Shown piece by piece: positions 27,569 through 32,309 of a stretch of DNA of 64,000 nt. The notes under the pieces were generated by a model that was not told where the DNA came from, searched no databases, and saw only the letters and a program-made list of their open reading frames with translations. Numbering within the stretch: position 1 is the stretch's first letter; every line of letters begins with the position of its first letter. Both the position numbers and the translations under genes were made by a program. This stretch comes from Candidatus Latescibacterota bacterium (lineage in GTDB: Bacteria > Latescibacterota > UBA2968 > UBA8231), in assembly GCA_965219385.1 (NCBI GenBank), contig CBDCNM010000002.1:1420936-1484935 (forward strand), read 5' to 3'.

Positions 27569-27597
27569 TTGCATAGGCCCCTCGATCCGATTATATT
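27569..27597 (+). promoter_or_regulatory. Putative sigma-70 promoter of the redox/peptide operon
   Basis: TTGCAT-N17-TATATT about 35 nt upstream of the ATG at 27632. Confidence 0.5.
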
Positions 27598-27631
27598 TAG
27601 TTAGCCGTGCCTGTTAACCGGGAGTCGGCCG

Positions 27632-28210
27632 ATGCTCTGGTCAATACGCGATCCTGCCGTCTACCTCCTGTTGGGCCTGATCCTCGTGCTGGGGCCAGGG
27701 GTGTTCGTCCTGTTGCACCTCTCCCCCGACGCTGCCGACCGGCCCGTTGAGCCGGCCCTGCCCGCGCTTCCTTCCGAACCGCATTTACGCACTATAACCC
27801 GACAGTTCAACCCCGAGTTGGCTACGCCTCGTCTCCAGGTGATATACAGCCCCCAACCGGCACCGCGTTCCGGCGTGGTCCAGGTCTATCAGGTGTACGA
27901 GGACCATCAGCCCAGGTATAGGCTGGCGGTAGTACGGCACGATATAGCTTGTACCACCTGCAAGGATTTGCTGGTGGCTGTTTTTCTGGCCCCAGATACG
28001 CCGCACATGGCCGGGATAGTGCCGCTGGCGGCCTGGGAAGTGGAGAGTGGCCCGGTTGACCCAGCGGGGTTCCTGGCCCAGTTCGTGGGGCGTTCGGTGC
28101 ACGATTCGTTGCGGTTGGGCGCGGAGGTGGACGGGCTGACCGGGGCGACGCTTACGGTGCGCGCCCTGCTGCGGCAGCTTGCCGGCTTAGGGGCCTGGAT
28201 TGATGGATAG
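27632..28210 (+). CDS. Membrane-anchored FMN-binding (flavinylation motif) protein with CxxC
   Basis: N-terminal TM helix, CTTC, and VDGLTGATLT matching the D-x-x-[ST]-G-A-[ST] ApbE target motif. Confidence 0.7.
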   Translation: MLWSIRDPAVYLLLGLILVLGPGVFVLLHLSPDAADRPVEPALPALPSEPHLRTITRQFNPELATPRLQVIYSPQPAPRSGVVQVYQVYEDHQPRYRLAVVRHDIACTTCKDLLVAVFLAPDTPHMAGIVPLAAWEVESGPVDPAGFLAQFVGRSVHDSLRLGAEVDGLTGATLTVRALLRQLAGLGAWIDG

Positions 28211-28226
28211 AAAGGAGGCAAAGGAG

Positions 28227-28772
28227 ATGGCAACCTCCGGAGACGGGTTGAATCCTCTAGTCTTGCCCCTGTCAGGGGTTGTAGGGGTGTTGCTGGCGTT
28301 GTGTATCGGCCTGGGGGTGCGCTTGGAAACGGGGGCTCCGCCGGGCTTCCGGCCCAAACCCCTGGCGCATTTGCTGGGGCATTTGGCCCCCCCCTTCGAG
28401 GTGGAAGGGGTCCATGGGGGAGTCGTTTCCCTGCACAGTGCCCCTGGGGCTACGGCCTGGCTGTTGTTTTTTACCGATTCGGCCTGTGGGGCTTGCCAGG
28501 CGGCCTATCCGTCGCTTCAGCAAGCGGCGGAGCGGCTGCCGGTGGTGGTGGTTGGGGTGGGCGATCGGCAGCAATTAGCCGCTCGATGGGGCAAGGTGGC
28601 GGTGGCGGTGGGGTATGATAGTTTGCGCACGGTGCAGCAGTTGTACCGGGTCCGGACTCTTCCCAGCGTTTTGTTGATTGACCCGCAGGGCATTGTGCGT
28701 CAGGCGGCTACAGGGAGTAAGAGTGTCGAGCAGATTCTCGCCTGGACTGCGCCTAAATCAGGAGGGCTTTGA
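28227..28772 (+). CDS. Membrane-anchored thioredoxin-fold (TlpA/ResA/MauD-like) protein
   Basis: TM anchor, APPF, CGAC active site and YRV..LP..LLIDPQG.V. Confidence 0.85.
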   Translation: MATSGDGLNPLVLPLSGVVGVLLALCIGLGVRLETGAPPGFRPKPLAHLLGHLAPPFEVEGVHGGVVSLHSAPGATAWLLFFTDSACGACQAAYPSLQQAAERLPVVVVGVGDRQQLAARWGKVAVAVGYDSLRTVQQLYRVRTLPSVLLIDPQGIVRQAATGSKSVEQILAWTAPKSGGL

Positions 28773-29990: not shown

Positions 29991-30051
29991 GCCCGGATCA
30001 CCTGGGGCCGGATCAAAGCGACGGTTGTCCGGTGAGGCGCTGGCCGGCGGC
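29991..30051 (+). pseudogene. Isolated TWGRIK C-terminal remnant with its 3' flank
   Basis: Encodes ARITWGRIKATVVR*. The 19-nt tgaggcgctggccggcggc at 30033-30051 is identical to 31181-31199. Confidence 0.75.
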
Positions 30052-30208
30052 TAACCATTGCTGAGGCAGCGAGTTCGCGCGGTTGGATGAAGCGCACGGA
30101 GTGCTCAGAGTCCAATGGGATGAGCCTGTCCGTTGGATCGCCGGCTTTATGGCGACCCAACGGGTGTATGACCACTTCAATGGAAATTCAACCTAAGGAA
30201 GGACCACG

Positions 30209-31183
30209 ATGAACCTAGTAAAGCGTTTCCTACCCATTATCGGCCTGGTGGTGGGGCTACTCCATGGCGCCGAGGGACAGGAGAGCGAAAGGATCTATCC
30301 CTTCGTCGAGTTGACCGACGCGGACCTGGCCCAGATTGACGTGACCGATGGCTCGATTGACGAGTGGGTGGACCTGCTGGGCGAACCCACCCTGACTGCC
30401 CTGGACTTTCAGACCCGTCCCGATCTGGCACCGTATGATCCGGCGGATATGGATTACCGCGTCTGGCTGGCCTGGCACGGGGCCACCCACCGCATCTATG
30501 GGGCGGTCGAGCGCTCCGATGATATATATATCAATACCTATGAAAATGATGGAACGATCCGTTCATCATGTATGCAGATGGTGCAGCATGATTCTTATGT
30601 ACACTTCAGGGTGGACGGCGACGCCAGTGGCGGGGAATACCTCTTCATGTCCACAATCATTGTGGGCGCCCCGTTCGATGAGGAGCGCCGACTGCTGATG
30701 AATCAACATGCTCAAAGCTACCGTATCCTGGGTGACATCGTCGGCGGCGGCCCCCATGTATGCTTGTGGACTCAGAGTCTATATAACGACGAGGACTGGT
30801 TCAATCTGCCGCCGTATGCGGAGGGAGGTGGGGCTTCTTTCGGCGAGCATCCCACGTTTTCGGTGACGGAATTCTACGTGACACCCTTTGACCGGTTGAT
30901 TTGGAACAGCCCGGAGGAGAGTGTGGTGTCGGCGTTGTCGCCTGGGACGCTGATCGGGTTTTCCCTCACAATTCTAGATCATGACGACGCGGAAATCCAG
31001 CCCCAGCCGGAAGGGTACCATTTTATTACGCATTTTATTACGGAGGGAGATTACTCGTCGGCTATATTCCAGAATGCCGACAACTTCGTCCGGGGATTGC
31101 TGGTGGGTCCTGGGGGTGAGCTCCCCGACTCAGCGGTGGAGAGCATGACCTGGGGCCGCATCAAGGCGACGTTGGGCCTGTGA
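30209..31183 (+). CDS. Secreted protein, possible CBM9/DOMON-like fold, with C-terminal TWGRIK motif
   Basis: Signal peptide (AEG|Q); DGSIDEW and IGFxLxILDxD resemble CBM9-like ends; C-terminus SAVESMTWGRIKATLGL. Confidence 0.7.
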   Translation: MNLVKRFLPIIGLVVGLLHGAEGQESERIYPFVELTDADLAQIDVTDGSIDEWVDLLGEPTLTALDFQTRPDLAPYDPADMDYRVWLAWHGATHRIYGAVERSDDIYINTYENDGTIRSSCMQMVQHDSYVHFRVDGDASGGEYLFMSTIIVGAPFDEERRLLMNQHAQSYRILGDIVGGGPHVCLWTQSLYNDEDWFNLPPYAEGGGASFGEHPTFSVTEFYVTPFDRLIWNSPEESVVSALSPGTLIGFSLTILDHDDAEIQPQPEGYHFITHFITEGDYSSAIFQNADNFVRGLLVGPGGELPDSAVESMTWGRIKATLGL

Positions 31184-31238
31184 GGCGCTGGCCGGCGGCC
31201 GGCCGTAGCTAAGGGGCCCACTTCGAGGGAAATAGAAA

Positions 31239-32309
31239 ATGAACCTTTTCACCGATCCGGTTTTTCTGGTAGAGTTGGTCATGCTCTCCGCGGTGCTGAC
31301 GGTGGGCTTGTATACCAGTTATACCGACCTGAAACTACGGCGGGTGCCCAATCGCTACACCTTCGCGCTCTTGGCCATCGGCCTGGCCGGACAGCTCACC
31401 ATGATTTTCCTGGACGTTACTTCCCTGAGCCGGGTCGTCGCCCTGCTGCTCACCGCGCTGGCCATAGCCTTTGGCCTGACCCTGTTGGGCTTCTGGTCGC
31501 CGGGCGACGCCAAGCTCTACTGGGCCGCCGCCCTAGCCTTGCCCCCGACCCTGTGTCCTTCTACGGACCCCTTCTCTTTGCAGGCGGCCCCCGTGGCGCT
31601 GGTCGTCAATGCGCTGCTGGGCTATTTGCTGGTCTTGTTGCTGGTGCCGGTGTGGCAGCGGGCGTGGCAGCAAGCCCCGGAGCAGGACCGGCCTGAAGGC
31701 CGGCCGTGGCTGCTGGCGGCCTGGGGCCTGGCCGGGCTGCTGGGGTGGGCCTTGAGCCTTGCCTGGCTGGTGCTGGAACGACCGCTGAGCTACCTGGAGA
31801 TGCTGGGGGCGCTGGTGATCGGCTACCGGCTGTTGGAGCGGGGGCTGGAGGTGCGCTACTGGCCGGTGGTGCTGGTGCCGGGCCTGGTCGCGTTGCTCTA
31901 TCTGGGTCAGGCTACCGGCGGCTGGCAAGAATACGTGCTGATGTGGGGGGCGGTCTGGCTGCTCGAGCTGGCGTATGGGCAGGTGCGGCACCGGTATAGC
32001 CGGGCGTTCGTGCAATCCTTTCCGGTGGGTTTGTTACAAGCAGGGGCTATCCCTCGTCAGGCGCTGTTTGCAGCAGGGGCAGCGGAGGAGGCCCCGGTCT
32101 GCGAGGCGGGCCGGCCGCTTTCTGAGCAGCAGGTGCGCCGGGTGCAGAAGCTGGCAGGGGAGGGGCGCTTGTCAGGGGATGGGGTGGTGGCCGTCGAACA
32201 GTCCATGCCCTTTGTACCGTTTATAACCGGTGGGGTGGTCGTGACGGCGTTTTTCGCGGGTAATCTGGTGCCGCCGCTGATTGAGTGGGTGGGGTGGCTG
32301 AGAGGGTAG
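31239..32309 (+). CDS. A24 family prepilin/class III signal peptidase, long polytopic (FlaK/EppA-like) form
   Basis: Two catalytic Asp motifs (YTDLKLRRVPN and SPGDAKL), many TM segments and C-terminal MPFVPFI. Confidence 0.82.
   Translation: MNLFTDPVFLVELVMLSAVLTVGLYTSYTDLKLRRVPNRYTFALLAIGLAGQLTMIFLDVTSLSRVVALLLTALAIAFGLTLLGFWSPGDAKLYWAAALALPPTLCPSTDPFSLQAAPVALVVNALLGYLLVLLLVPVWQRAWQQAPEQDRPEGRPWLLAAWGLAGLLGWALSLAWLVLERPLSYLEMLGALVIGYRLLERGLEVRYWPVVLVPGLVALLYLGQATGGWQEYVLMWGAVWLLELAYGQVRHRYSRAFVQSFPVGLLQAGAIPRQALFAAGAAEEAPVCEAGRPLSEQQVRRVQKLAGEGRLSGDGVVAVEQSMPFVPFITGGVVVTAFFAGNLVPPLIEWVGWLRG

Follow-up and report, generated by a model that had tools for sequence, protein, structure and literature searches.

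A conserved cassette of A24 peptidase, thioredoxin and cysteine-rich precursor genes in a Latescibacterota genome: a candidate maturation system for secreted disulfide-rich mini-proteins

Organization of the locus

The subject of this study is a gene cassette at positions 27569–32309 of a 64,000-nucleotide stretch of a Candidatus Latescibacterota genome (assembly GCA_965219385.1, contig CBDCNM010000002.1, positions 1,420,936–1,484,935 of the forward strand), referred to here as the window and numbered from its first base. The cassette unites a small cysteine-rich precursor, redox proteins and an A24 (prepilin-type) peptidase, and an earlier note on this DNA (the original prediction) had read it as a pathway resembling those of ribosomally synthesized and post-translationally modified peptides (RiPPs). 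The five open reading frames (ORFs) named there are all found on the + strand where they had been placed, both in the ORF listing and in the sequence. In order, they encode an anchored RnfG/NqrC-fold protein of 192 residues with an ApbE flavinylation motif and a CxxC (27632–28210; assigned from motifs and predicted structure), an anchored TlpA/ResA-like thioredoxin-fold protein with a CGAC motif (thioredoxin A, 28200–28772), a second anchored thioredoxin-fold protein with CPYC (thioredoxin B, 28769–29347), the precursor (29517–29792) and a long, EppA-like A24 aspartic peptidase of 356 residues (31239–32309), whose gene begins 1,447 bases downstream of the precursor gene. Overlooked in that list was a gene between precursor and peptidase (30209–31183, + strand) for a secreted CBM9-like protein of 324 residues with a C-terminal TWGRIKA motif.

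The peptidase matches Pfam PF01478 with an E-value of 1.8e-8 and 35.2 bits, against a gathering cut-off of 26.5, and its catalytic D30 and G89-D90-x-K92 (GxGD-type; PGDAK in the window protein) are invariant across 19 sequences. With the cut-off exceeded and both aspartates in place, it is by sequence a member of the A24 family; its C-terminus additionally gives a weak EppA match. The nearest named record is from a Ca. Latescibacterota assembly (59% identity), and the public RNA-labelled runs in which part of the stretch is found come from sponge metagenomes; the host is therefore taken to be a sponge-associated Latescibacterota bacterium.

Conservation of the cassette and absence of detectable pilus machinery

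The genes are genuine, and the cassette they make up is conserved. A search of 150 genomes of the phylum found the peptidase in 22, spread over three families, and 33 stretches around the matches were compared. Linkage was counted for the 26 full-length genes among 40 A24 ORFs, in 20 genomes, with the 14 partial ORFs omitted and partners accepted on the same strand within 7 kb. A thioredoxin gene lay near all 26, a leader-bearing precursor near 23 and the flavin mononucleotide (FMN)/CxxC gene near 17; where the precursor was missed, it was on the opposite strand in one case and the locus sat at a contig end in the other two. The linkage proposed originally is hence kept across relatives, leader-bearing precursors recur beside A24 homologues, and the peptidase does not sit with ordinary pilin operons. 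Gene order within the cassette varies between relatives, some of which add a GT4 glycosyltransferase gene, or genes for a TPR protein, a transglutaminase-like protein and a GT2 glycosyltransferase. In one genus (loci L050:4385-9191 and L051:2489-7237) the thioredoxins are followed by the TPR protein, a transglutaminase-like protein of ~830 residues and GT2, and in another (L036, L037, L143 and L144) GT4 and a propeller protein lie upstream of the FMN gene. No close match to these glycosyltransferases was found in the host genome.

The host genome carries several versions of the cassette, with three copies each of the FMN protein, thioredoxin A and thioredoxin B, four precursors with intact leaders, and four intact A24 genes plus one broken. 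A second copy spans the whole cassette at 95.8% DNA identity over 4,735 bases, a third, lacking the peptidase, comprises the redox genes plus a precursor whose core differs, and two A24 copies lie in arrays of CBM9-like genes with precursor fragments. Tandem duplication and deletion shape the cassette region. An assembly artefact was considered and rejected, as the copies differ from one another in protein (91–99% identity) as well as in DNA and the cassette recurs in other genomes.

The four intact copies of the cassette A24 are the sole PF01478 matches in the host genome. The original prediction had found no pilus or Tad genes in the window, and this extends to the whole host assembly (94% complete, two contigs; controls detected in 13 of 14), where no pilus ATPase, platform protein, N-methyl pilin, Flp pilin or TadE scored above cut-off. 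Similarly, a pilus-ATPase-family match above cut-off was absent from 18 of the 22 A24-bearing relatives, with 12 candidates scored per genome.

A double leader and a hypervariable core with a predicted defensin fold

The precursor has 91 residues and nine cysteines, all within its last 41 residues, and has no Pfam or NCBIfam match, including none to NF038309. Three segments can be distinguished. Residues 1–18 (29517–29570) resemble a Flp-prepilin leader by profile and end in F-x-x-S-E-S-G, with a predicted A24 cut after Gly18; residues 19–49 (29571–29663) comprise a short basic stretch, a hydrophobic helix (24–42) and AEA, a signal peptidase I site predicted from hydropathy and alignment; and residues 50–91 (29664–29792) form a 42-residue cysteine-rich core with a predicted cysteine-stabilized alpha-beta (CS-alpha-beta, defensin-type) fold. 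The Gly18 end followed by a hydrophobic helix is a type IV/Flp leader trait, whereas a Glu at +5 and a Pfam Flp_Fap or N_methyl match are lacking.

A leader profile was built from precursors beside A24 genes and searched against 1.84 billion representatives, of which 143 clusters (50% identity) matched. In 105 homologues parsed by script, Gly-1 is present in 99, Phe-7 in 90 and Glu-3 in 65, and Glu at +5 in just 8, the window precursor having Arg there. Two Pfam Flp pilins and two HxsA3-like proteins are among its hits as well. Past the helix, selected aligned homologues keep an AxA site (Ala-1 25/25, Ala-3 23/25), so that the N-terminal part of the precursor has the appearance of a prepilin leader joined to a class I signal peptide. 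For the pilin-type leader processing first proposed, the sequence offers a pilin-like piece ending at Gly18; an ordinary-looking signal peptide ending at Ala49 follows it. Because the leader is double, a cut by the A24 peptidase alone would not release the peptide. The leader also heads proteins of 200–330 residues with cysteine-rich repeats and a tail like those of FlgD and type IX secretion system (T9SS) substrates, and in this respect it behaves as an export signal would. Such fusions to repeated cysteine-rich modules and an FlgD/T9SS-like C-terminal domain occur at L045:8810-9799, L048, L149, L152, L156 and L157. Atlas hits for the precursor score at most 0.86 (Poribacteria clusters) and serve as a lead only.

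Mean identity is 0.54 in the leader versus 0.13 at non-cysteine core positions; a conserved leader, a hypervariable core and a linked peptidase, the combination by which RiPP precursors are recognized, are found together here. After 8 of the 143 hits were removed by hand and 9 failed to parse, 126 cores remained, of which 106 have at least six cysteines. The cysteine number is even in 96/106, and CS-alpha-beta-like spacing occurs in 42/106 compared with 4.6 ± 2.1 in 500 shuffles. The window core fits the C...CxxxC...C...CxC spacing and is modelled with a predicted local distance difference test score (pLDDT) of 92.8 as strand-helix-strand-strand, the helix packed on an antiparallel sheet. Its top structural matches are plant and fungal defensins, the best plant defensin being 7jn6 (Z 5.1, root mean square deviation (rmsd) 2.2, 42 residues aligned); Foldseek returned no match under E 0.001, weak scores being expected for 42 residues. 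The defensin-like nature of the precursor, as originally claimed, is thus backed by both the spacing enrichment and the predicted structure. Net charge is negative in 93/106 cores and positive in 4, with the window core at -4, and because so many cores are acidic, 'defensin-like' is to be taken as a description of the modelled fold and not as a sign of a cationic antibiotic.

A leader and peptidase shared with His-Xaa-Ser loci

In named genomes, the peptidase has its most distant relatives in archaea, where they adjoin precursors that match the leader part of NF038309 (HxsA3); one of these archaeal loci also has an HxsB-like radical-SAM gene and HxsD. At metagenomic A24 loci, HxsB/HxsD-like genes or an HxsA3-type leader were found in 36/80, and in 24/37 of the loci of at least 5 kb, counts that include 20 leaders which were themselves in the counting profile. 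When a profile was made of 21 foreign HxsA3-type leaders alone, the window precursor ranked joint first of 103,046 host ORFs (E 0.02). Radical-SAM HxsB/HxsC, HxsD and His-x-Ser repeats are all absent from the ORFs of the window cassette. In a FastTree tree of A24 peptidases (84 rows, 11 A24s from related genomes kept), which carries long-branch warnings and from which no direction of transfer is claimed, the family forms one fully supported clade. At L064:125-364, a leader-bearing precursor whose repeat core is rich in Trp, His and Phe and has neither Cys nor His-x-Ser adjoins two genes, one for an HxsB-like radical-SAM enzyme and one for an A24 placed near the window family in the tree.

The redox genes

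The RnfG-fold protein has a single N-terminal transmembrane segment, a CTTC motif (Cys107, Cys110) and DGLTGAT (167–173). Its own Pfam FMN_bind match is below cut-off (E 0.031), yet all 18 members of the family match FMN_bind, and the CxxC and DG-GAT are invariant in these 18 homologues. The model (pLDDT 83) matches RnfG in Foldseek (E 1.2e-5) and NqrC (4xa7) in VIA-align (Z 9.8, rmsd 3.3, 141 residues aligned); searching the FMN-protein alignment against the sequences of solved structures gave only a chance match. For flavinylation, the [ST]GA[ST] motif at the start of the last helix, the RnfG/NqrC fold and a genomic ApbE are all present, and apbE lies directly upstream of the FMN gene at two relative loci.

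Two loops of NqrC, loop 6-7 and the ETPGLG loop, enclose the ring of the flavin (PMC4348036). In a profile alignment (probability 95.9), the CxxC falls on the equivalent loop, which contains Gly, in an ordinary FMN-domain paralog, and the spacing of the CxxC to the second flavin loop is similar to that of NqrC-type proteins, with the ETPGLG motif not kept. A multiple alignment with the host's own NqrC did not place the CxxC reliably, so that the paralog profile alignment is what positions it. We infer that the CxxC would lie near the flavin.

Thioredoxins A and B match the Pfam AhpC-TSA/Redoxin fold with E-values of 1.2e-10 and 7.9e-15, and models of the ResA/TlpA type and MauD match below cut-off. 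The stop of A and the start of B overlap as TGATG, from which B is predicted to be translationally coupled to A; the real start of A may be the ATG at 28228. The CxxC of thioredoxin A is kept in 28/30 homologous ORFs. The host genome further carries DsbD, an NQR complex and an SprA-like protein, and no match to DsbB or VKOR was found in it.

The CBM9-like neighbour and related secreted proteins

The CBM9-like protein has no Pfam or NCBIfam match and was assigned through Atlas CBM9_1 clusters (score 0.94–0.97). It belongs to a large paralog family, with 45 tblastn segments in the host genome. In relatives, a large secreted paralog lies directly 3' of 35 of 53 short precursors, being of the FG-GAP/FlgD type in 24 cases and CBM9-like in 11. 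A complex prediction for the mature core with its CBM9-like neighbour (score 0.01, mark 0.32) counts for neither side in the question of partnership.

Host ORFs of more than 100 residues ending in [ST]W[GSA]x[ILV]K number 58 (for example at 31140–31183 of the window), and the motif may be a surface-sorting signal. An NxPNPFN-type tail is carried by 39 ORFs of this genome, which has an SprA-like gene. Long arrays in two relatives (L145, L146, L147 and L148 in genome G126, L149 in G134) alternate short precursors with FG-GAP/FlgD proteins of ~700 residues, and also hold DUF4159 genes and a sigma-54 activator with a sensor propeller.

Flanking sequence and RNA-labelled data

Upstream of the cassette, TTGCAT-17-TATATT (27569–27597, + strand) could serve as a weak sigma-70-type promoter, as had been suggested. 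The suggestion is plausible, with the -10 region identical in 3/3 genomic copies and the -35 TTGCAT kept in 2/3, but it matches the consensus at only 8 of 12 positions by hand count and is not among the sites listed by the consensus scan, which returned 3 sites against 1.9 ± 1.4 in shuffles. The scan does list an 11-of-12 consensus site on the - strand (27617–27590); it faces the other way from the cassette and shares bases with the -10 proposed on the + strand. The remnant of a frameshifted CBM9-like gene occupies 26949–27513, a short remnant of a TWGRIK-type gene end follows the precursor at 29990–30040, and the window opens with a strongly GC-skewed region that contains a 2,306-residue ORF (5–6925, + strand).

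Four sponge metatranscriptomes hold just 5–13% of the sampled words of the stretch. In three, parts of thioredoxin B, the precursor and A24 are represented by contigs of related cassettes, one of these contigs running from thioredoxin B into the precursor leader; these contigs come from relatives and may include DNA, and no claim of expression or co-transcription rests on them.

Proposed mechanism

We propose, with a probability of roughly 0.6, that the cassette is a dedicated maturation kit for secreted disulfide-rich mini-proteins. The precursor would enter the inner membrane through its hydrophobic helix with the N-terminus inside. The A24 peptidase would then probably cut after Gly18 on the cytoplasmic side, in the manner of a Flp prepilin, removing residues 1–18 and leaving a short classical signal peptide. 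A cut by signal peptidase I after Ala49, which we consider similarly probable, would free the 42-residue core into the periplasm, and the product would not polymerise into a pilus. Glu5 is reported to be dispensable for processing and required for homopolymer assembly (PMC4471445); as Glu+5 is rare here, the leader fits cleavage without a pilus. There is likewise a good chance that the disulfides of the defensin-type fold are made or rearranged by the two anchored thioredoxins.

That the RnfG-fold protein is flavinylated by ApbE is very likely, judging from motif, predicted fold and genome content. More tentatively, at somewhat less than even odds, it would couple its CxxC to the flavin and so recycle the thioredoxins or introduce disulfides; this part would be optional, and electrons could run in either direction. 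The acidic, fast-diverging cores would most likely be binding modules at the cell surface or toward the sponge environment, which is the weakest step of the scheme, and would probably act with the diversified secreted protein encoded next door instead of as cationic membrane-lytic antibiotics. The RiPP-like pathway of the original prediction is supported in its linkage and, by structure prediction, in its fold, and it finds a parallel in the Hxs loci; the reading of the leader and that of the relay need changing.

Several observations weigh against this scheme. The leader is present in all 22 A24-bearing genomes and absent from 123/128 others, but this co-occurrence is partly circular and overstated, the profile having been derived from A24 loci and kin genomes. 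In four relatives (G013, G018, G084 and G123) leader-bearing genes occur although no A24 was detected, and three of these genomes are at least 94% complete in listings or single-contig; in these four the leader may work without A24, or the genes may be remnants. A leader match in G117 was set aside as an apparent false positive. Residues +1 to +7 of the precursors are more polar than in pilins and may not suit an A24 peptidase, the window core has an odd number of cysteines (nine, one above most cores), two of the four intact A24 copies lie without adjoining redox genes, and the deep branches of the A24 tree are weak. The FMN/CxxC gene, found in 17/22 A24-bearing relatives, is missing in 5/22, and thioredoxin B is reduced to CxxS in several. 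Redox genes are indeed linked, but the 'private electron relay' of the original prediction goes too far, since no membrane electron carrier is found among the cassette genes.

The alternative that survives best is an unusual Sec signal, in which signal peptidase I makes the only productive cut, A24 clears the leftover stub or acts after export, and the thioredoxins serve the peptide and neighbouring secreted proteins alike. The AxA site is conserved as strongly as the Gly site, the four genomes just named keep leader-bearing genes without detected A24, and the fusions to FlgD-tailed proteins behave like ordinary secreted proteins. However, Gly-1 and Phe-7 are conserved in pilin register, and Hxs loci from well beyond the phylum pair a related leader with a long A24, points that together make this reading improbable, if still a serious competitor.

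A defensin-like bacteriocin, with an antimicrobial core and the downstream diversified protein (CBM9-like here, FG-GAP elsewhere) as immunity or receptor partner, is unlikely. Antimicrobial defensins are typically, though not absolutely, net cationic when mature, whereas the cores here are acidic; the window cassette has no ATP-binding cassette (ABC) peptidase-transporter, and the CBM9-like family has dozens of copies, most of them away from precursors. Against these points stand the predicted CS-alpha-beta fold, the conserved leader with variable core, the large secreted paralog directly 3' of most short precursors, and the existence of bacterial defensin-like bacteriocins (PMC6989792).

It is very unlikely that the redox genes, of the ResA/TlpA type and fed by DsbD or flavin, keep the cysteines reduced for metal binding, in place of disulfide formation, by the acidic core in the periplasm: the best family matches of the thioredoxins are to reductive ResA/TlpA types (below cut-off), the genome has DsbD and no DsbB or VKOR match, and the window core has nine cysteines, but the even-cysteine bias and defensin spacing are strong and the defensin-type model is confident. 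Least probable of all is a divergent Flp-type minor pilin or membrane-anchored surface peptide that stays in the membrane or a filament after the cut at Gly18, for the two true Flp pilins retrieved by the profile and the EppA-like C-terminus of the peptidase are set against a host genome with no assembly ATPase, platform or pilin found, the rarity of the Glu+5 needed for homopolymer assembly (PMC4471445) and the conserved AxA.

The maturation-kit scheme can be extended to a bolder reading, which we regard as doubtful in its entirety. It would have a Flp-like leader and A24 co-opted as a pilus-independent export gate for ribosomal peptides, with radical-SAM or disulfide chemistry according to lineage. 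The RnfG-fold CxxC protein would be a new covalent-flavin sulfhydryl oxidase, making disulfides in a genome without a DsbB or VKOR match and yielding libraries of acidic defensin-fold ligands for sponge symbionts.

The role described for prepilin peptidases is in type IV filament machines. If four A24 copies in a genome with no detectable filament machinery are tied to peptides other than pilins, this protease family would have gained a new use, and the leader, whose profile matches 143 clusters, would be a new type for genome mining. The leader/A24 idea lends itself to a small heterologous test that is applicable also to HxsA3 systems without radical-SAM enzymes. The family would amount to a large natural library of predicted defensin-fold scaffolds from uncultured sponge symbionts, and the CxxC-bearing predicted flavoprotein is a candidate for an undescribed way to make or recycle periplasmic disulfides.

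Comparison with known systems

The original prediction knew of no named system with this combination, and the literature likewise yielded no description of it, closed journals and supplements being largely outside the coverage. Flp/Tad prepilins with TadV/CpaA and archaeal EppA (PF01478, PF04964) share with the cassette an A24 peptidase with both aspartates and a hydrophilic leader that ends in Gly before a hydrophobic helix, a likeness close enough for the profile to retrieve two Flp pilins. The cassette differs in lacking Glu+5, in its polar +1 to +7 residues, in the AxA past the helix and in its core, predicted to be disulfide-rich, and the host genome differs in having no detectable filament machinery. 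The HXS (His-Xaa-Ser) system in its HxsA3 variant (NF038309, TIGR03978, TIGR03976) shares a related leader and a related long A24 beside the precursor, whereas the window cassette has no radical-SAM enzyme, HxsD or His-x-Ser repeats. For the characterised HXS antiphage system no peptidase gene is described in the accessible text, and 'peptidase', 'archaea' and 'disulfide' occur 0 times in its main text (PMC13128918).

Sublancin/glycocin clusters (sunA, sunS, sunT, bdbA, bdbB) are alike in their leader/core precursor, their own thiol-disulfide oxidoreductases and a leader peptidase (PMC6405829), and some cassette relatives share glycosyltransferases (GT2 or GT4) with them. Leader removal in glycocin clusters is, however, assigned to an ABC transporter-peptidase (PMC6405829), and the window cassette is without a SunS-type glycosyltransferase, a SunT-type peptidase-transporter and a DsbB-like gene. 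The actifensin/actinomycesin defensins resemble the precursor family in their small cysteine-rich core, CxxxC and CxC spacing and hypervariability (PMC6989792). They have a GA-type leader, ABC transporters and three disulfides, and 'thioredoxin' is absent from the accessible text of that paper (PMC6989792); the cassette cores, in contrast, mostly have eight cysteines, are acidic and come with A24 and thioredoxins.

ApbE-flavinylated RnfG/NqrC domains share the fold and [ST]GA[ST] motif with the cassette flavoprotein, which differs from RnfG/NqrC in being stand-alone, with an invariant CxxC and no ETPGLG flavin motif (PMC4348036). Flavinylation beside thioredoxin-like genes is known from DsbD/thioredoxin/DUF3570 clusters (PMC8238504), and 'CxxC' occurs 0 times in what is accessible of this survey; 'prepilin' is similarly not mentioned in the available text of PMC9062424. 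The likeness of the cassette thioredoxin to MauD is confined to a weak match.

By membership the cassette falls outside pilin systems, HXS systems and glycocins. By analogy, it would work like a sublancin-type cluster that uses a prepilin-type protease, with a product resembling actifensin-type defensins in spacing. The cassette is real, conserved and apparently undescribed, a variant of leader-guided peptide maturation to which the window locus adds the RnfG-fold CxxC protein and the defensin-fold cores.

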